Assembly (NCBI GenBank): GCA_047517485.1
Contig: JAKZSU010000012.1
Location: 643-64,642 of the forward strand
Source: Alphaproteobacteria bacterium
GTDB lineage: Bacteria > Pseudomonadota > Alphaproteobacteria > UBA7887
Direction: 5' to 3'
DNA length: 64,000 nucleotides
This document shows positions 1,206 through 9,567 of this stretch, one piece after another; positions within the stretch are counted from its first letter, which is position 1, and every line of letters starts with the position of its first letter. Under the pieces are notes generated by a model. The model was given only the letters and a program-made list of their open reading frames with translations, had not been told where the DNA came from and did no database searches. Position numbers and translations under genes: made by a program.

Positions 1206-1997
1206 ATGACCCGTCGGCGGGAGCCGGTATTCGGCACATTTGTCGCCGAGTTCGATACGCCGGGGATGGGGCATATCCTCGCCGCCGCGGGCTGTGATTT
1301 CGCCTTTCTCGACATGGAGCATTCGTCGATCACCATCGACCGGATCAAGAGTTCGGTGCGCTATTACGAGGCGGCGGGGGTGCCGCTGATCGTGCGCCCA
1401 CCGTCGAAAGCCTATGCCAATGTGGCTGGGGTGATGGATGCCGGCGCGGAAGGGATCTGCCTGCCGTGCGTCGGCTCCGCGGATGAAGCGCGCCATCTCG
1501 TCTCGATGGTCAAATATCCGCCGCAGGGCGGGCGCGGCATCGGCATTCAATTGGCGCATGATCGTTATCGCGCCGGCGATGCCGCGGCCAAGATCAAGGC
1601 GGCGAACCGGCGCAGTTGTGTGATCCTGCAGATCGAGTCCGCCGAAGGGGCGGCCAATGTCGATGCCATCGCCGCGACCCCGGGGGTCGATGCGCTGTGG
1701 ATCGGCCATTTCGACCTCAGTGCCTCGCTCGGACTTCCCGGCCAATTTGATCATGCCGATTTTCAAGCCGCGGTCCGGCGCACGGCCAAGGCCTGCAAAA
1801 AGCACAAAATATCGCTCGGCATGATCGCCGGCTCGCCCGAGCACGGTCTCGCGCTCATTCGCCAGGGGTTCAACCTAATCAGCTATTCGGGTGATGTCTG
1901 GCTTTTGCGCGACGCCCTCGCTGCCGGAATCACCGCGATGCGCGAAGGCTTGAAAAAGCGCCGCCGCCCGGCGGTCAAAAGAAAGCCGAAATCGTGA
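1206..1997 (+). CDS. HpcH/HpaI-family class II (2-keto-3-deoxy acid) aldolase
   Basis: FLDMEHSS metal-binding motif and TIM-barrel aldolase layout. The internal ATG at 1206 gives a protein of typical ~260 aa; the track ORF starts at 1026. Confidence 0.7.
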   Translation: MTRRREPVFGTFVAEFDTPGMGHILAAAGCDFAFLDMEHSSITIDRIKSSVRYYEAAGVPLIVRPPSKAYANVAGVMDAGAEGICLPCVGSADEARHLVSMVKYPPQGGRGIGIQLAHDRYRAGDAAAKIKAANRRSCVILQIESAEGAANVDAIAATPGVDALWIGHFDLSASLGLPGQFDHADFQAAVRRTAKACKKHKISLGMIAGSPEHGLALIRQGFNLISYSGDVWLLRDALAAGITAMREGLKKRRRPAVKRKPKS

Positions 1998-3034
1998 GTA
2001 AATTCCGCATCGCCCTCTCGGGTGACCTGTTCAACACCGATGGCACACCAACATTCCCGGATTTCGACCTGTCGCGTCTCGATCAAGAATCCGATGTCGA
2101 CTATGCGGTGATTGGACGCGGGCCGATCCTCGGCGCGGCGGAACTCGACGGATTCGACGCGCTCATTCTTTTGGCGCCAAAATTTCGCGCTGAAAGCGTG
2201 CCCGCCGATGGCCGCTTGTCGGTGATCGCGCGTGGCGGGGTCGGCTACGATTCGGTCGATGTCGAGGCCTGCACCGACAACGGCATTGCCTTGGTGATCA
2301 CCCCCGACGCGGTGCGCCGCCCGGTCGCGGTCATGGTGATCACCTTTATGACCGCGCTGGCGGGCCAACTTCTGACGCTCGACCGCATTACCCGCAAGGG
2401 CCCCTGGTCCGACCGCACCACAACGGTGGGCGTCGGCCTGATCGGCCGGACTTTCGGCCAGATCGGGATCGGCAATATCGGTGCCGAGGTGGTCGGGCTC
2501 GCCAAGCCATTCGGGCTCAAGGTGATCGCCAACGACCCCTACGTCGATCCGTCGGTGGCCGACGAACTCGGGATCACCCTGGTCGACAAGGATACGCTTT
2601 TCGAGCAGTCGGATTTCGTGTCGGTGAGCTGCCCGCTCAATGACGAGACCCGCGGTCTGGTGAGCGCGGAAAGGCTGGCGCAAATGAAGGCCAGTGCGTT
2701 TCTGATCAACACCTCGCGTGGGCCGGTGGTCGACCAGGCGGCGTTGACCGAGGCGCTGCGCGATGGCGTGATCGCCGGCGCCGGGCTCGATGTGCTCGAG
2801 AAAGAACCGCCGGATCCCGACGATCCGATCCTCGGCCTCGACAATGTCATCCTGTCGCCGCACTGCATGTGCTGGACCGATCAGATGTTCAAGATCATGG
2901 CCGATCGCGATATCGAGGCGTGCCTCGACGTGATGCACGGGCGGGCGCCGCGCAACGTCGTCAACCAAGAAGTGTTGGAGCGCAACCGCTTCGTCGCCAA
3001 GCTCGACGCCTATCGCGCGGCGTTCGGCTCGTGA
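1994..3034 (+). CDS. D-isomer-specific 2-hydroxyacid dehydrogenase (NAD-binding)
   Basis: GxGxxG NAD fold (GLIGRTFGQIGIGNIG) and a catalytic R/E/H-type layout. The GTG start overlaps the aldolase stop (GTGA). Confidence 0.8.
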   Translation: MSKFRIALSGDLFNTDGTPTFPDFDLSRLDQESDVDYAVIGRGPILGAAELDGFDALILLAPKFRAESVPADGRLSVIARGGVGYDSVDVEACTDNGIALVITPDAVRRPVAVMVITFMTALAGQLLTLDRITRKGPWSDRTTTVGVGLIGRTFGQIGIGNIGAEVVGLAKPFGLKVIANDPYVDPSVADELGITLVDKDTLFEQSDFVSVSCPLNDETRGLVSAERLAQMKASAFLINTSRGPVVDQAALTEALRDGVIAGAGLDVLEKEPPDPDDPILGLDNVILSPHCMCWTDQMFKIMADRDIEACLDVMHGRAPRNVVNQEVLERNRFVAKLDAYRAAFGS

Positions 3035-5130
3035 GCCGATTGCGCGATCTCACGGCCCTCTTGCAGCCGCGTTCCGTCGCCATTATCGGCGCGACACCGG
3101 ACGTGCGTCGCCCGGGCGGGCGGCCTCTCGATTTTCTCCGCCGCTACGGCTTCGCCGGGCCGATCTACCCGGTCAATCCGCGTTACGACGATATCGACGG
3201 CGTGCGGTGCTATGCCAAGATCACCGATCTGCCCGAGCCCGCCGACATGGCGGTGGTCGTGGTCCCGGCGCCGGCGGTGTTGCAAACCCTGCGCGATTGT
3301 CAGACCGCCGGGGTCAAGGCGCTCACCATCTACACCTCGGGCTTTCGCGAGACCGGCGCGGAGGGCGCGGCGATGGAAGCCGAGCTCATCGAAGTGGCGA
3401 ACCAAGCCGGGACGCTGATCTGCGGGCCCAATTGCCAGGGGGTCGCCAATTTTCACGATTCGATGATCGCCAATTTCACCTCGGCGCTGGCGACCGAGGG
3501 AATCGACGCCGGGCCGATCGGCTTCGTCAGCCAGAGCGGCCTGTTCACCGGTATCGTCACTGCTGAGCTGCGCCGCCGCGGCCTCGGTCTCGGCTATCTA
3601 ATCAGCAGCGGCAACGAATCCGTGGTCGATTTCGCCGACGTGCTCGCCTTCATGGCCGAGGATCCGCGCATCAAGGTGGTCGCGGGCTATATGGAAGGCA
3701 TCCGCGACGGCGCCAAACTGCGCGCGGCGGCGGCGGTCGCGCGGCGCAACGGCAAGCCGATGATCCTGCTCAAGGTCGGGCGCTCGCCGGAAAGCGCGGC
3801 CGCGGCCGCCTCGCACACCGGGGCGATGGCGGGCGCCTACGAGGTCTATCAGGCGGCGCTCGCACAATGGGGCTTGATCGAGGTCGACTCGATCCGCGAG
3901 CTGTTCGACGCCATCGAGGCGTTCGCGGTGACCAGCGGCATCGCGCGCGGCGACAAGGCCGGCATTCTGACCAATTCCGGCGGCCTCGGTGTGTTCGGCG
4001 CCGACCAGGTTCGGTCCCAAGGTTTGGCGATGGCAACCTTCAGCGAAACAACCGTCGCCACCATCCAAGACCGCCTGCCGCAATTCGGCTCGGCGCGCAA
4101 CCCGATCGATTTCACCTTGCAGGCGTTTACCGATCCGCAGGCGGTGGGCGCGCACCTCAGACACATGATCACCGACGACGACGTCGATATCGGGCTGGTG
4201 TTCTTTGGCGTGCAATTGCTCAACGTCGATGCTCTGGTCAAGGAGATCACCGACGCCGACGCACTAAACGAAAAACCGATCCTGGTGTCGTGGATGCTCG
4301 GGGAGGCGAGCGCGCCACGGCGCCTCCGCGATGCCGGCATCCCCTGTTACGACGACCCCGAGTCGGCGATCAAGGCGGCGCGGCGGTTGGTCGAGCATGG
4401 CCGTCTCGCGGCGCACGCGGATGCCGCGCGCACACCATCGGCAATGGACGGGGTTGCGCAAAGGTTACCCGGCGCCGGGACGCTCTCAGAATGGCAAGCG
4501 CGCGCGGTTCTGCGGGTTGCCGGGATCGACACGGTGTGGGGCGCGCTCGCGGCCACCGTGGATGAGGCGGCCGCCGCGGCCGCTGCCATCGACGGGCCGG
4601 TGGTCCTCAAAATCGAATCCGCCGATATTGCCCATAAAAGCGAGGCGGGAGGTGTCGCCCTCGGGCTCGACGACGAAACCGCCGTACGAGAAGCATATGA
4701 GCAGGTGACCACGAGCGCGCGGGCTTATGCGCCGGACGCCGATATTACCGGGGTCGGTGTCTATGAGATGATCTCCGGCGCCGTCGAACTCATCGTCGGG
4801 ATCAGCCGCGACACTGCGTTCGGGCCGGTGATCCTGGTCGGCATGGGCGGGATCATGGCCGAAGTCATGGACGATTCCGCGCTCGGCGTGGCGCCACTCG
4901 ACCGCCCCCGCGCCGCGGCCATGCTCGCCTCGCTCAAGGGTTTTCCCATGCTCGACGGCGCGCGCGGCCGGCCCAAATGCGACACCGCCGCGGTGGTCGA
5001 TATTTTGCTGGCTTTGTCGGATCTAGCGCTCGCGTGTCCGAGCATCGGCGAACTCGATATCAACCCGCTGATGGTTATGCCGGTGGGCGAGGGGGCCAAG
5101 GCGGCGGACGCGCTGATTACCGTCAGCTAA
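3031..5130 (+). CDS. acyl-CoA synthetase (NDP/ADP-forming), fused CoA-binding + ATP-grasp subunits
   Basis: N-terminal CoA-binding domain (VAIIGATPD...YPVNPRYD...VPAPAV) followed by succinyl-CoA-synthetase-like and ATP-grasp regions. The GTG at 3031 overlaps the upstream stop; the track ORF 2869 is extended upstream and overlaps. Confidence 0.75.
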   Translation: MSRLRDLTALLQPRSVAIIGATPDVRRPGGRPLDFLRRYGFAGPIYPVNPRYDDIDGVRCYAKITDLPEPADMAVVVVPAPAVLQTLRDCQTAGVKALTIYTSGFRETGAEGAAMEAELIEVANQAGTLICGPNCQGVANFHDSMIANFTSALATEGIDAGPIGFVSQSGLFTGIVTAELRRRGLGLGYLISSGNESVVDFADVLAFMAEDPRIKVVAGYMEGIRDGAKLRAAAAVARRNGKPMILLKVGRSPESAAAAASHTGAMAGAYEVYQAALAQWGLIEVDSIRELFDAIEAFAVTSGIARGDKAGILTNSGGLGVFGADQVRSQGLAMATFSETTVATIQDRLPQFGSARNPIDFTLQAFTDPQAVGAHLRHMITDDDVDIGLVFFGVQLLNVDALVKEITDADALNEKPILVSWMLGEASAPRRLRDAGIPCYDDPESAIKAARRLVEHGRLAAHADAARTPSAMDGVAQRLPGAGTLSEWQARAVLRVAGIDTVWGALAATVDEAAAAAAAIDGPVVLKIESADIAHKSEAGGVALGLDDETAVREAYEQVTTSARAYAPDADITGVGVYEMISGAVELIVGISRDTAFGPVILVGMGGIMAEVMDDSALGVAPLDRPRAAAMLASLKGFPMLDGARGRPKCDTAAVVDILLALSDLALACPSIGELDINPLMVMPVGEGAKAADALITVS

Positions 5131-5185
5131 AATAAATTCGCCGTCCGCCAAGGAAACGCCTTAATCGTGCGTCTTACTAGACAGC

Positions 5186-5737
5186 ATGCTGACGATGACC
5201 GACGACGAAACGCTCGCTCAGCGAGCCGGGACCGGAGATAGGGAGGCGTTCGAGACGCTTCTCGAGCGCCACTACGACCGGGTCTATCGCATTGGCCACC
5301 GCTTGCTCGGAAACCCGACCGAGGCCGAGGATCTCGCTCAGGACATCTGTGTCGGCCTGGTCAAGAAACTGCGGTCCTATCGCGGCGACAGCCGTTTCAC
5401 CACCTGGCTCTATCGTGTCACCGTCAATGCCGCGCGCGACGTGCTGCGCCGCCGTGCGACATCGAACCGCCTCGACCGGTCGTTCAGCGATACCGCGGCG
5501 CTGGTCAAGGCGGGTGACGAAGCCCGGCGGTCCGAGGCGCGCTGGCTCTACGACGCCCTGCAGGCGCTCGGCGAGGATCTGCGCGAAACCGCGCTGCTGG
5601 TGCTGTCCGAGGAACTCAAACATGCCGAGGCGGGGGAAATATTGGGCGTGAAGGAGGCCACCGTCTCGTGGCGCATGCATGAAGTGCGAAAGCAGCTGAA
5701 AGCGCTGGCCGAGGCCGGCGATGGTGTCACGACATGA
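5186..5737 (+). CDS. ECF (sigma-70 family group IV) RNA polymerase sigma factor
   Basis: Region-2 and region-4 signatures (DLAQDICVGLV..., TTWLYRVTVNAARD, ...LSEELKHAEAGEILGVKEATVSWRMHEVRKQL). Confidence 0.85.
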   Translation: MLTMTDDETLAQRAGTGDREAFETLLERHYDRVYRIGHRLLGNPTEAEDLAQDICVGLVKKLRSYRGDSRFTTWLYRVTVNAARDVLRRRATSNRLDRSFSDTAALVKAGDEARRSEARWLYDALQALGEDLRETALLVLSEELKHAEAGEILGVKEATVSWRMHEVRKQLKALAEAGDGVTT

Positions 5738-7899
5738 CCGATGAATTCGACGATCTAAAAATGACCTTGGCCGAGGACGCGCCGTCCTCGAATCCCGTGG
5801 CGCGCAAAGCCGCGATCAAGGCCGGACTGGTCGCGTTCGACGCGGAATTTTCCGCCGCCGCCCAAGGATCGCCGTCCCGAGAACGTCAAAGGGGAAGATT
5901 TTCATCAATCCTCCAAACCCTATTCGGGAGACGTTCCATGACCCTCACGCAACCCCGTTTTCGCTATGTCCTCGCCGGCGGCGCCAGCGTCGCCGTCCTC
6001 GCCCTGGTGGTCTTCGGCAGCAACTTGCCGCGCCAGTTTTCGCAAGAAATTTCATTGCAAAAAGTAGCCGACGACCGCTTGGCGGGCGACTACGACGAAG
6101 GCAAAGTCGTTGCGACGACGAGTCAGTTGAAGAGCGAAGTCGATGCCATTCTTGGCGGGCAGGAGGTGCGTCGCGAATTGGCGGTTCCGCTAACGGATTC
6201 AGAATCATTACCTAGATCGCGCAACAAGTCGGCGCAATTGCCACAATCCGTATCCGAACCGGAGGTTATGACTTGGCATGCACCCAGTGCCGATCAAACT
6301 GCCAAGTCGACTGAGGCCAACCGCGGAATCGCGCAAGAATCCTTTGCCGATTTGTCGGCCGACACCGGCGGGGTTGCCAGCGCGCCGGCGATCATGATGG
6401 AGCGTGCCGACGTGCAGGCCCGCATTGCCGACGCGCCCGCGAAGGCGCAGTACGAGGACCAAGGCCGCGATCGCTTTGCCGATATCGAGGCCAATCCGGT
6501 GAACGTGGTCGCCGAGCAACCGGTATCGACCTTCTCGATCGATGTCGACACCGCGTCCTATGCCTTCATGCGTGGCTCGCTGAACCAAGGCGTTTTGCCG
6601 CAGAAGGACGCGGTGCGTATCGAGGAGCTGATCAATTATTTCGACTACGACTACGCGCTGCCCGACGACCGCGAGGCGCCGTTCCGCGCCCACGTCTCGG
6701 TCATGCCGACGCCGTGGAACGACGAGACCCAGCTGATGAGCATCGGCATCAAGGGCTATGACCTCGACGCGGCGGAGAAACCGCACGCGAACCTGGTGTT
6801 CCTGATCGACACTTCGGGCTCGATGAACCATGAAAAAAAGCTGCCGTTGTTGATCAACTCTTTCAAACTGTTGCTCGACAGCCTCGACGCGGACGATACG
6901 GTGGCGATCGTCACGTATGCCGGCAGCGCGGGCACCGCGCTCGAGCCGACTAAAGTTTCTGAACGGGCGAAAATTCTCGCCAGTCTCGAACGCTTGCGAT
7001 CCGGCGGCTCGACCGCCGGCGCCGAGGGCATCCGCCAAGCCTATCTGTTGGCCGAGCAAAACCTCGTCGAGGACGGGGTGAACCGGGTGATCCTGGCCAC
7101 TGACGGCGATTTCAATGTCGGCATCACCGATCAGGAAGAACTCAAGAGCTACATCGAGCGCAAGCGCGAAACCGGGATCTCGCTCTCGGTCCTCGGCTTC
7201 GGCCGCGGCAACTACAACGACGAGCTGATGCAGATCCTCGCCCAGAACGGCAACGGCAACGCCGCCTATATCGACAACCTGTCGGAAGCACGAAAAGTAC
7301 TGGTCGAGGAAGCGACCTCGACTTTGTTCACCATCGCCAAGGACGTCAAGATCCAGATCGAGTTCAACCCGGCGACGGTCTCGGAGTATCGCCTGATCGG
7401 CTATGAGACCCGCATGCTCGCGCGCGAGGATTTCAACAATGACAAGATCGACGCCGGCGACATCGGCGCCGGGCATACGGTCACCGCGTTGTATGAATTG
7501 ACCCCGGTGGGTACCGGCGCCGAACGCATCGACTCGCTGCGCTATCAACCCTCCGCGGACGTGGAAGGAGAGGCGGCTTCGAGCGAGATGGCGTTCCTCA
7601 AGATTCGCTACAAACTGCCCGACAGCGACACCAGCACGTTAATCACCCAGGCGATCACCGAGGATAACGTCTCGAACGACGTGTCGTCGGCGCCCCGCGA
7701 GGCCCGCTTCGCCGCCGCCGTCGCCGGTTTTGGCCAGCTCTTGCGCGGCGGCCGCCATACCGGCGACTATGGCTATGACCATGTGATCGCCTTGGCGCAG
7801 GGCGCCAAGGGTGACGATGATTTCGGCTACCGGTCGGAATTCATCAGCTTGGTCCGCCTGGCGAAATCCGCCGCCGATTTGGAAGCGCTCCGTCGCTAA
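5734..7899 (+). CDS. membrane anti-sigma-like protein with periplasmic von Willebrand A (vWA) + DUF3520-like domains (YfbK-like)
   Basis: 4-bp ATGA overlap with the sigma gene. One TM helix (YVLAGGASVAVLALVVFG) follows a short cytoplasmic N-terminus. MIDAS motif DTSGSM and a vWA fold. Confidence 0.75.
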   Translation: MTDEFDDLKMTLAEDAPSSNPVARKAAIKAGLVAFDAEFSAAAQGSPSRERQRGRFSSILQTLFGRRSMTLTQPRFRYVLAGGASVAVLALVVFGSNLPRQFSQEISLQKVADDRLAGDYDEGKVVATTSQLKSEVDAILGGQEVRRELAVPLTDSESLPRSRNKSAQLPQSVSEPEVMTWHAPSADQTAKSTEANRGIAQESFADLSADTGGVASAPAIMMERADVQARIADAPAKAQYEDQGRDRFADIEANPVNVVAEQPVSTFSIDVDTASYAFMRGSLNQGVLPQKDAVRIEELINYFDYDYALPDDREAPFRAHVSVMPTPWNDETQLMSIGIKGYDLDAAEKPHANLVFLIDTSGSMNHEKKLPLLINSFKLLLDSLDADDTVAIVTYAGSAGTALEPTKVSERAKILASLERLRSGGSTAGAEGIRQAYLLAEQNLVEDGVNRVILATDGDFNVGITDQEELKSYIERKRETGISLSVLGFGRGNYNDELMQILAQNGNGNAAYIDNLSEARKVLVEEATSTLFTIAKDVKIQIEFNPATVSEYRLIGYETRMLAREDFNNDKIDAGDIGAGHTVTALYELTPVGTGAERIDSLRYQPSADVEGEAASSEMAFLKIRYKLPDSDTSTLITQAITEDNVSNDVSSAPREARFAAAVAGFGQLLRGGRHTGDYGYDHVIALAQGAKGDDDFGYRSEFISLVRLAKSAADLEALRR

Positions 7900-7905
7900 G
7901 ACCTT

Positions 7906-8667
7906 CTACTTCGATCCGCGCCGCTCCAGGAATTTGGCCATGATCTTATGTGGCTCGCCGCTTTCATAGGCGGCACGCTGGAGCGGCGCGGCCGCGACGA
8001 ACGCATCGTCGAACGCCGCTTGCGTCATCTGTCTCAGCCGTATCTTGGTCAATCGAAAGGCGTTCACCGGCTGCTCGGCGAGCGCCTTCGCTTCTGCAAT
8101 CGCGACATCCCGAACCTCCTCCTCGGGCACGATCCGGCTCAGTAAACCGAGCCTCTGCGCTTCCTCGGACTCGACCAGACGCCCCGTCAGCGCCAGGTCT
8201 CGGGTTTGCAGATGGCCCAATGTCAGCGCCATCAGTTGCACGCCGATAACGCTCGCCAAGCCGACATTGATCTCGGGTTGGCCGAGACGCACCCCGGCAT
8301 GGCCGATTCGCGCATCGCACAGCAGGGCGACTTGAAATCCGGCGCCGGCGGCAAGCCCGTTCACCGCCGCGACGCACGGTTTGTCGAGGTCGCGAATGGC
8401 GGTGAGAAAGTGCCGCAAATCGTCGACCCACGCGACCGCCTCGTCGGCGCTGAACGCGGCGGTCTCGGCGAGGTCGTTGCCGGCGCAAAACGCCTTGTTT
8501 CCCGCGCCGGTGATCACGACGCCGCGCAGGTCTTCGCGTCGATTGACCGGCGCTAGCGCCTCGACCACCTCCGCCCGCATCGCCGCATGCAGGGCATTGC
8601 GCACCGCTGGTCGGGCGAAGGTCACGATAAGAAATCCGTCCGCGGTTCGGGTTTCGATAAATTCCAT
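7906..8667 (-). CDS. enoyl-CoA hydratase/isomerase (crotonase family)
   Basis: Crotonase fold motifs (AFCAGNDL, AAVNGLAAGAGFQVALLCD). Confidence 0.85.
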   Translation of the reverse strand: MEFIETRTADGFLIVTFARPAVRNALHAAMRAEVVEALAPVNRREDLRGVVITGAGNKAFCAGNDLAETAAFSADEAVAWVDDLRHFLTAIRDLDKPCVAAVNGLAAGAGFQVALLCDARIGHAGVRLGQPEINVGLASVIGVQLMALTLGHLQTRDLALTGRLVESEEAQRLGLLSRIVPEEEVRDVAIAEAKALAEQPVNAFRLTKIRLRQMTQAAFDDAFVAAAPLQRAAYESGEPHKIMAKFLERRGSK

Positions 8668-8724
8668 GGCGTTGGCCTCCGTTCGCCGGCATTCTGGCGG
8701 TGGTCGGCAAGCGGGGGAAGACCC

Positions 8725-9567
8725 ATGGTTGCAAAATCAGACATGGTGCGGATCGCGCGTTGGGCGGGCTTTGCCGCTACTCTGGTCTGCCAGCAGACCG
8801 CGACGGCGGTCGCCGACAACGAAGCGGCCGAGGTCGCCTACGATCGCGGCGACTATGACAGCGCGATGGTCCAATGGTTGGCCGAAGCCGATCGCGGTGA
8901 TGCCACGGCGCAATACAATGTCGCCACGCTGCTCCGGCTGGGCCGCGGCGGCGCGCCAAATCCCAAGGCCTCGGCGGTCTGGTACCGCGCCGCCGCCGAG
9001 CAAGGCCATTTGGCGGCGCAGACCAATCTCGGGCGGCTGTATCTCGCCGGCGCCGGCCTCAAGCGCGACCCGGCGCGGGCGATGAAGTGGTTCGCGGCGG
9101 CGGCGGAGAAACATTATCCGCCGGCGGAGTATTATTTGGCGGAGCTGTTTCGCACCGGCGAGGGGGTGTTGTGGGATCCCGAGCGCGCGCTCGAGCTTTA
9201 TCTCTCGGCGGCGGAACAGGGTCTCACCCAAGCCGCCTTCAGACTGTCGCGGATGTATCGCACCGGCGACGGGGTACCGCGCAATTTCCGCGCCTCGCGC
9301 GAGTGGACGGTGCGCGCCGCGGTCGGCGGGCACGCGGAGGCGCAATACCATCTCGCGGCGCTTTATTTCCGCGGCGAAGGACATAAGGCGGACCCGGTAC
9401 GCGCGCTGATCTGGTATCACCACGCGGATCGTGGCGGCTATGTCGGTGCCGCGCAAATGCGCGATGCGATTGCACAATCGCTCACCCCCCAACAACGCGC
9501 CGAAATCGACGACATCGCCAAAAAGATCGAGCGCGCATTGACCCGTGCCACCGTCGCCGAGCCATGA
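8725..9567 (+). CDS. Sel1-repeat (TPR-like) secreted protein
   Basis: Signal-peptide-like N-terminus (MVAKSDMVRIARWAGFAATLVCQQTATAVA) and about six Sel1 repeats (AQYNLG/AEYYLAELF/AQYHLAALYFRGEG). Start chosen at an internal ATG. Confidence 0.75.
   Translation: MVAKSDMVRIARWAGFAATLVCQQTATAVADNEAAEVAYDRGDYDSAMVQWLAEADRGDATAQYNVATLLRLGRGGAPNPKASAVWYRAAAEQGHLAAQTNLGRLYLAGAGLKRDPARAMKWFAAAAEKHYPPAEYYLAELFRTGEGVLWDPERALELYLSAAEQGLTQAAFRLSRMYRTGDGVPRNFRASREWTVRAAVGGHAEAQYHLAALYFRGEGHKADPVRALIWYHHADRGGYVGAAQMRDAIAQSLTPQQRAEIDDIAKKIERALTRATVAEP

Follow-up and report, generated by a model that had tools for sequence, protein, structure and literature searches.

Within the window, i.e., a 64,000-nt stretch of contig JAKZSU010000012.1 from an alphaproteobacterium of the GTDB lineage UBA7887, a gene for an extracytoplasmic function (ECF) sigma factor overlaps the downstream gene for a 721-aa membrane protein with a von Willebrand factor A (vWA) domain. 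Sequence comparison strongly supports that the coding region of the latter, a putative anti-sigma factor, carries an embedded, dual-coded promoter (P2) followed by an internal start. The best overall explanation is a self-contained module of type ECF289 that would provide three products from two open reading frames (ORFs), which we consider rather likely. The coordinates of all features are collected in Table 1.

We compared the gene pair with 80 related loci from a scan of one genome per species. For 62 of them, a homologous ECF sigma gene is found directly upstream on the same strand, mostly with a gap of -8, -4 or +2 nt to the vWA gene, and these sigma-linked loci span Alpha- and Gammaproteobacteria, Desulfobacterota and Binatia. 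That is, the pairing of sigma and vWA genes is far beyond chance. Class 1 of the loci (56 loci) shows a sigma factor that is 33-60% identical to the one of the window, encoded directly upstream of a vWA protein with an N-terminal module and a transmembrane (TM) helix. It covers Hyphomicrobiales, Rhodobacterales, Micavibrio, Caulobacterales and Parvibaculaceae as well as three gammaproteobacterial, two Desulfobacterota and one Binatia loci. Within class 2, i.e., six Sphingomonadales loci, the sigma gene is followed by the gene of a vWA lipoprotein that has a lipobox and lacks the cytoplasmic domain. In those loci whose contig extends far enough, a third gene encodes the N-terminal module (e.g., DDELKAFLPEPPPPAPKRREAAIAGALARFDG), a TM helix and a periplasmic TPR domain; an example of such a split system is found at 5029-8699 of locus L039. 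Class 3 (about 15 loci) has no sigma gene, and its vWA proteins start with a signal peptide or a lipobox. Three or four of the 80 loci are cut off at a contig end and are outside the three classes.

The putative ECF-type promoter motif of these systems is CCAAGGAW-N14-CGTC and comprises 12 specified bases. It has two exact copies in the window, one in front of the sigma gene (P1) and one inside the vWA ORF (P2), compared to 0.01 expected ones; none of 100 shuffles reaches two copies and no further copy is found within the 64 kb when allowing for one mismatch. Altogether, 97 exact copies are present in 923 kb of loci, every one of them on the gene strand; typically, one copy precedes the sigma gene and the other is located within the vWA ORF, about 115-165 nt from its start. 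The P1 and P2 sets share the logo CCAAGGAt-N14-CGTCnnA. Besides the window, about 48 related loci show the motif upstream of sigma, which covers nearly all of class 1, i.e., the GGAAC/CGT-like promoter before the own operon that is expected for ECF autoregulation is present by sequence. For class 2, the motif is located in the non-coding spacer between sigma and the stand-alone vWA gene, and the class 2 loci L015, L018, L029 and L039 have no copy upstream of sigma. In the close relatives L081 (syntenic) and L082, P1, P2, the Shine-Dalgarno (SD) sequence and the internal ATG are invariant, and many changes are found in the codons of the putative anti-sigma domain (ASD). Given this comparison, both P1 and P2 are very probably promoters that depend on the sigma factor. 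An extra exact copy precedes the gene of a 470-aa PQQ/BamB-like beta-propeller in locus L006 (2443-3918), which may be a further regulon member.

The -10 element CGTC of P1 ends 12 nt 5' of the sigma ATG, and 31 of 50 loci have a distance of only 8-12 nt between this element and the sigma start codon. Hence, the sigma mRNA probably has little or no leader, such that synthesis of the full-length vWA protein would depend on translational coupling. A coupling of both genes is indicated by their overlap in ATGA, which had been claimed in an earlier reading of the sequence alone (in the following the sequence-only reading) and is borne out here.

P2 reads gcC CAA GGA TCg ... CGT Caa and thereby encodes A43 Q44 G45 S46 ... 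R51 Q52. We assessed its conservation in 56 genes, namely those of 55 class 1 loci and the window. At the same frame and position, 43 of the 56 genes show the motif exactly and 48 in relaxed form; seven of the eight genes without relaxed match show, with unchanged place and spacing, a version with one mismatch. The codon choice within the motif differs strongly from that of the same genes in general: glutamine is encoded by CAA in 46/46 cases (background 25% of Gln codons), glycine by GGA in 48/50 (8.3% of Gly codons) and arginine by CGT in 50/50 (12.4% of Arg codons). The fixation extends to flanking bases whose amino acids vary. The third base of the codon preceding P2 is C in 49/50 genes with the residues A, S, R, T, F, L, P, I and D, and the first base of the codon after CGT is C in 50/50 with L, Q, R, P and H. 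Where the peptide itself varies, the DNA pattern is preserved (e.g., AAA GGA), and the spacers and neighbouring codons of P2 differ widely among the genes. Furthermore, the QG...R peptide is not present in the anti-sigma proteins of the split class 2 systems. Since copies of the motif exist in non-coding DNA, a purely protein-level explanation is excluded. Only four columns of the N-terminal alignment are invariant, i.e., M1, G45, R51 and M69; in this order, they represent the start codon, the -35 and -10 elements of P2 and the internal methionine. We further observe that the sequence GAACGTCAAAGGGGAAGATTTTC at 5884-5906, which reaches from the -10 element of P2 into the predicted 5' leader, shows no difference between the window, L081 and L082, third codon positions included. 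The proteins of these three relatives are only 70-78% identical; this may reflect an extra constraint on the leader or the mere closeness of the sequences.

The predicted P2 transcript has a leader of 30-60 nt with a canonical SD sequence, in contrast to P1. All 48 P2 genes (48/48) have an in-frame ATG 32-65 nt past the CGTC of P2 with an SD core at -16 to -5, while an SD-like core precedes only 36 of 591 (6%) other internal Met codons of the same genes. This SD core is encoded by unrelated residues, e.g., FGRRSM in the window, LWSEIM in Mesorhizobium and VRRFYM in one Micavibrio relative, and its retention with differing amino acids argues for selection on the RNA. In 46/48 genes, the distance from the internal Met to the beginning of the TM helix is 4-13 residues. 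Taken together, the P2 mRNA is likely to yield an isoform starting at M69, i.e., a TM-vWA protein without the sigma-binding head.

Public gene calls for the identical protein (P0001) start at M69 and report 653 aa, as is the case for several relatives. M69 as the sole true start is rejected, since protein-level conservation of residues 1-68 extends to dozens of homologues, with the consensus MTDELDxLKxAFxxxxPxPxxxARxAAIxAAMxAFDEE...QGS....R...M, and this stretch bears the sigma-linked module; the long ORF of 721 aa is thus real. Calls from M69 drop this 68-residue N-terminus, such that many database entries lack the putative sigma-binding part, and the family is annotated merely as 'VWA domain-containing protein' or 'Ca-activated chloride channel homolog'. 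Small fragments with the anti-sigma domain alone are then called as separate proteins. Beside P0001, the public calls concerned are P0002, P0012, P0089, P0096, P0106, P0120 and P0121-P0126.

Which part of the vWA protein is linked to the sigma factor was addressed with a hidden Markov model (HMM) of the ASD, built from the first 40 alignment columns alone. It matches 59 of the 62 sigma-linked loci and none of the 18 sigma-less ones, with exactly one site per locus, and the sole match in the window is at 5734. The module follows the sigma gene rather than the vWA gene and sits on different membrane proteins, which is the behaviour expected of an anti-sigma domain. Beside this co-variation, the protein shows the general layout of membrane anti-sigma factors, i.e., it adjoins the sigma factor and combines a cytoplasmic N-terminus and a single TM helix with an extracytoplasmic C-terminus. 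Flanking-ORF clustering across lineages finds no conserved third gene for a ligand, a protease or an efflux system, as known from ECF281, ECF290 and ECF291. It detects synteny at family level only, within Phyllobacteriaceae, such that the pair itself provides the only genes conserved across lineages. The full-length vWA protein is, as judged from this distribution, highly probably the cognate anti-sigma factor, and we infer that its N-terminal domain would bind sigma. This was the proposal of the sequence-only reading, which would have given it up if the two genes did not co-occur elsewhere, or if the cytoplasmic N-terminus were too short or not conserved. The 62 of 80 loci with the gene pair and the conserved, modular N-terminus leave the idea standing.

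The same reading held that the N-terminus is no canonical zinc or RskA anti-sigma domain and suggested a family search, which agrees: neither Pfam nor NCBIfam yields a model for residues 1-100 at E<=1, and both Cys and His are absent from residues 1-68. Class I anti-sigma domains are four-helix bundles of about 80-90 aa, with an HxxxCxxC zinc motif in the zinc-binding (ZAS) type. An assignment to class I (ZAS, RskA, RsiW or RseA type) is rejected, given the missing family match, the lack of Cys and His, and only about 42 structured residues in two helices. For the N-terminus, AlphaFold2 (AF2) predicts helices at 2-14, 21-38 and 40-43 with pLDDT values of 65-84, followed by disorder. Class II domains comprise about 30-50 aa with two helices that bridge sigma-2 and sigma-4. 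Size and the two predicted helices of the module fit this class (CnrY or NepR type), without sequence similarity to any PDB chain. A search of a 5.8-billion-protein database with the profile of the N-terminal module for other domain partners gives six short fragments only.

CnrY, the anti-sigma factor of the CnrH-CnrY-CnrX system of Cupriavidus metallidurans, has a very short cytoplasmic domain of about 45 residues with two helices that is followed by one TM helix. This size and secondary structure match the prediction for the N-terminal module, while CnrY shows no sequence similarity to its profile. Within the Cnr system the sensor CnrX is a separate, metal-binding protein, whereas the sensor in the window would be the fused 600-residue vWA module. 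To our knowledge, no intragenic promoter is known for cnrY. CnrH-CnrY-CnrX (ECF291; class II, PDB 4CXF) represents a sister group derived from ECF20.

Beside the internal promoter and the split operon of class 2, a third arrangement is found in Micavibrio sp. L007 (JBKBNU010000001.1), where a paralogous set at 3225-5373 adjoins the main system. There, a sigma gene (3225-3767) overlaps a gene (3754-4557) whose product has a TM helix and a domain X behind an ASD-like N-terminus. A motif copy follows at 4588-4613, and then a separate gene (4651-5373) for a TM helix and domain X. The two copies of domain X share 34% identity over 221 residues (E 6e-38); no Pfam match is found for this domain. The ASD-like N-terminus of L007 was recognised by eye only and is not matched by the ASD HMM. 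In all three architectures, a promoter that is by its motif of the sigma-dependent type precedes a head-less copy or partner of the periplasmic part of the anti-sigma factor.

The sigma ORF matches the Pfam models Sigma70_r2 (residues 25-91, E 1.6e-20) and Sigma70_r4_2 (residues 119-171, 1.2e-5) as well as TIGR02937 sigma70-ECF from NCBIfam (2.9e-28). Regions 1.1 and 3 are absent and the length is within the range of about 180-200 aa expected for ECF (group 4) factors; PDB relatives are SigE, SigW and CnrH (CnrH with E 6.4e-10). For the 721-aa protein, the layout claimed by the sequence-only reading, i.e., a cytoplasmic N-terminus, one TM helix and a periplasmic vWA domain with intact metal ion-dependent adhesion site (MIDAS) followed by a DUF3520 region, is recovered in all parts via Pfam, alignment and hydropathy. 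The TM helix is the only one of the protein, with a hydropathy maximum of 2.02 and the conserved LAGGASLAVLA in the alignment. The MIDAS residues D359, S361, S363, T427 and D457 are invariant in the 26-sequence alignment. That is, the protein combines PF12450, VWA and PF12034 with the DxSxS...T...D pattern, as in the YfbK family and MIDAS-type VWA domains. According to the AF2 secondary structure, YfbK_C forms a beta-sandwich followed by a helical C-terminus.

The same periplasmic PF12450-VWA-PF12034 module with intact MIDAS is known from E. coli YfbK and its family, which has >8000 homologues and the KEGG label 'Ca-activated chloride channel homolog'. Ordinary YfbK proteins differ from the window protein in that they have a signal peptide or lipobox and lack a cytoplasmic domain, an adjacent sigma gene and the promoter motif; the sigma-less YfbK homologues among our loci are lipoproteins. 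Papers that mention YfbK merely list it. Structural relatives of the periplasmic part according to Foldseek are archaeal ArnB, a Catenulispora vWA protein, human ITIH1, the pilus-tip adhesins PitA and SpaC, and integrin beta (E 5e-17 to 1e-11, identity 12-16%). It shares with ITIH1 (6FPY), ArnB (8S05, 5A8J), PitA and SpaC, the best of these matches (E 5e-17 to 1e-12), a MIDAS vWA domain with flanking beta-sandwich, while the identity is only 12-15% and TM-scores are low (0.25-0.44), based on a medium-confidence model. None of these four is linked to a sigma factor, unlike the window protein. The Foldseek relatives bind protein ligands via their MIDAS metal site; as far as this analogy carries, the signal for the vWA module would most likely be a ligand that is a protein or part of the envelope.

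We propose the following mechanism. The sigma factor would recognise P1 and thereby give rise to a near-leaderless mRNA for sigma itself and, via ATGA, for the 721-aa protein in a coupled ratio. At rest, residues 1-42, which are class-II-like in size with two helices, would hold sigma at the membrane. The periplasmic YfbK-type module would serve as sensor that most likely binds a protein ligand via its MIDAS metal site, and a periplasmic event at this module would release sigma. Regulated proteolysis is the usual route of sigma release. Free sigma would also transcribe P2, such that a shorter mRNA with SD and M69 yields a TM-vWA isoform unable to bind sigma. As the main local output, the short isoform might feed back, e.g., if it and the full-length sensor compete for ligand, partner or protease. 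The P1, full-length and P2-isoform steps rest on comparative evidence, whereas we infer sigma binding and feedback. We are about evenly divided on whether the dual-coded promoter between the sigma-binding head and the anchor lets sigma activation switch the gene from a sensor (ASD-TM-vWA) to a head-less copy (TM-vWA). The further step, i.e., that the short isoform is the main local output and probably a competitor that closes a feedback loop, is put forward tentatively and with somewhat more doubt than belief. An implication would be that the vWA module, presumed to be the sensor of the system, is its output as well. If true, such a circuit ('sensor domain equals output') would represent an ECF regulatory logic that has not been described before, in which the amount of free periplasmic module sets the activity of the pathway, either as decoy or as product-feedback loop.

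The pair could also be an ordinary ECF289 pair, where Q-G-S...R is a protein motif (a sigma contact or a juxtamembrane element), the promoter likeness is incidental, and M69 is simply conserved. The motif is indeed always in the same reading frame and gives a recognisable QG[ST]x4R peptide, and no internal promoter appears in the accessible part of the ECF289 description (PMC7826278). This reading leaves unexplained why rare synonymous codons are fixed, why the flanking bases are fixed while their amino acids vary, and why the identical 12 bases with the same spacing occur in non-coding DNA before sigma genes and the stand-alone vWA genes of Sphingomonadales. Together with the anti-sigma proteins of split systems, which do without QG...R, and the SD core kept before M69 though encoded by different amino acids, we regard it as very unlikely. 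Accepting P2 as a real sigma-dependent promoter, its product could still be something other than an isoform, i.e., a boost of the 3' mRNA part, a regulatory RNA or the occlusion of read-through from P1. Other bacteria are reported to have intragenic ECF and FliA promoters whose RNAs are non-coding or unstable. This is set against the in-frame ATG with SD at canonical spacing in every P2 gene compared to few of the control Met codons, always just before the TM helix, and against the invariance of M69. In addition, split systems have the same promoter before a stand-alone secreted or lipoprotein version of the module, and the next gene is convergent 6 nt past the stop codon, so that P2 has no other coding target. 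A product other than the isoform is hence improbable in our view.

A different doubt concerns the anti-sigma function. The vWA protein might be a co-transcribed target of sigma only, with an N-terminus for targeting or stability, while sigma is controlled from elsewhere. The N-terminal residues match no known anti-sigma model, and the vWA module is clearly a target of sigma given the promoters before it in all three architectures. Still, the N-terminal module tracks sigma and not vWA according to the HMM counts, and in Sphingomonadales it moves to another TM protein that remains in the sigma cluster. The coupling gap, the cytoplasmic N-terminus with a single TM helix and the lack of another conserved neighbour form the standard signature of a cognate anti-sigma factor, and P2 is placed exactly such that the module is excluded from the second product. 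We thus consider a mere target role unlikely.

Several observations weigh against the proposed ECF289-type module with internal promoter and isoform. In eight of the 56 genes, P2 is present in degenerate form only. The loci are phylogenetically related, with about 14 from Mesorhizobium or close relatives; due to this shared ancestry, the codon counts are inflated and do not represent independent events. The constant reading frame of P2 likewise points to one origin. A comparison of the N-terminal profile with all PDB sequences gives chance-level matches only, with the best E of 0.46 on unrelated proteins. The full-length AF2 model, derived from the 26-sequence alignment, is of mediocre quality with a mean pLDDT of 59 (60-90 in the folded part). 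On the supporting side, RNA-seq of Mesorhizobium huakuii shows the adjacent genes MCHK_2864 (yfbK, vWA protein) and MCHK_2865 (sigma-70 family) 13.9x and 15.6x up in bacteroids (PMC3973600). These data agree with co-regulation of such a pair, which is possibly related to ours, with its orthology to the window pair being an assumption.

Sigma/anti-sigma pairs of this kind are already catalogued as ECF289, in bioinformatic terms only. In the ECF classification 2.0 (Casas-Pastor et al. 2021, PMC7826278), four groups were split from ECF20, among them ECF289 and the CnrH group ECF291, and the +1 protein described for ECF289 (PF12034, PF00092 and PF12450 in the +1 gene) corresponds to the same gene pair as in the window. 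All three domains are found here in the gene that overlaps sigma by ATGA; the kinship of the window's sigma factor to CnrH and ECF20-type sigmas bears indirectly on the membership. The ECF289 main text, as far as accessible, describes no internal promoter, no internal start, no split Sphingomonadales variant and no two-helix N-terminal module (PMC7826278). Beyond this source, we found no mention of ECF289 in the accessible literature and no experimental study of such a pair, and the S. meliloti ECF regulon paper mentions neither a vWA partner nor this promoter motif. The new elements, which go beyond the sequence-only reading, are the promoter motif, its copy inside the anti-sigma ORF and the internal start, for which no description was found in the accessible literature. 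The same holds for a precedent of a sigma-dependent promoter inside the ORF of the cognate anti-sigma factor, where the accessible literature is incomplete.

Table 1. Features of the sigma/vWA gene pair with positions in the window.
Feature	Position	Strand	Remark
P1 promoter CCAAGGAA-N14-CGTC	5148-5173	+	predicted; in the 55-nt spacer 5' of the sigma gene
ECF (group 4) sigma gene	5186..5737	+	183 aa; sigma-2 and sigma-4 regions only
ATGA overlap	5734-5737	+	sigma stop codon shares bases with the anti-sigma ATG; read from sequence
Full-length anti-sigma::vWA gene	5734..7899	+	721 aa; ORF, domains, conserved residues 1-68
Putative anti-sigma domain, residues 1-42	5734..5859	+	helices 2-14 and 21-38 with Pro-rich turn between
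P2 promoter	5862-5887	+	predicted; second exact motif copy, within codons 43-52 of the anti-sigma ORF
Internal SD GGGAGA	5926-5931	+	6 nt before the internal ATG
Predicted short isoform from M69 (ATG 5938), 653 aa	5938..7899	+	stub of 8-9 residues, TM helix and whole periplasmic part; without anti-sigma domain
TM helix, about residues 78-96 (YVLAGGASVAVLALVVFGS)	5965..6021	+	Arg-rich cytoplasmic side
Periplasmic linker, residues 97-243	6022..6462	+	variable, low-complexity, disordered; AF2 pLDDT about 30-40; unconserved in the alignment
vWF_A PF12450, residues 244-335	6463..6738	+	Pfam E 5.7e-36; N-terminal to the VWA fold
VWA PF00092, residues 353-518	6790..7287	+	Pfam E 3.7e-16; MIDAS DTSGS at 6808-6822, plus T427 and D457
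YfbK_C PF12034 (formerly DUF3520), residues 529-711	7318..7866	+	Pfam E 2.5e-72

Concerning the surroundings of the pair, no RNA family and no sigma-70-type promoter is found within 4800-8300. The convergent neighbour of the vWA gene encodes an enoyl-CoA hydratase (7906-8667, minus strand). Just past it, an ORF at 8587-9567 on the plus strand contains Sel1-like repeats, judged by eye from the translation. The arrangement of both is retained in the close relatives L081 and L082, whose homologues of the Sel1-like ORF have no recorded Pfam match. A VWA/Sel1 gene cluster is listed among the induced genes in a paper on RpoE6 of Azospirillum (PMC12826043). On the other side, the mechanically derived 5' end of an acyl-CoA synthetase-like ORF (2869-5130, plus strand; CoA_binding, Succ_CoA_lig, ATP-grasp_5) is too long, i.e., the over-extended ORF overlaps the 2-hydroxyacid dehydrogenase gene at 1994-3034. 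Since the L081 homologue of this protein has 696 aa, the true start is expected near 3040.

Among bacterial signalling systems, ECF sigma factors are a major one, and many of their groups, including ECF289, are known from a database entry only. With these results, the group gains a concrete promoter motif and a minimal putative anti-sigma module of about 40 residues for which our searches gave no Pfam, NCBIfam or PDB match. It further gains a testable circuit, whose only conserved sigma target would be a truncated isoform of its own anti-sigma factor. Conserved promoters within coding sequences that show a measurable synonymous-site constraint are rarely documented so cleanly, and synonymous changes could kill P2 without altering the protein. 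The roughly 14- to 16-fold induction in M. huakuii bacteroids hints at a role of such pairs in symbiosis or envelope remodelling.

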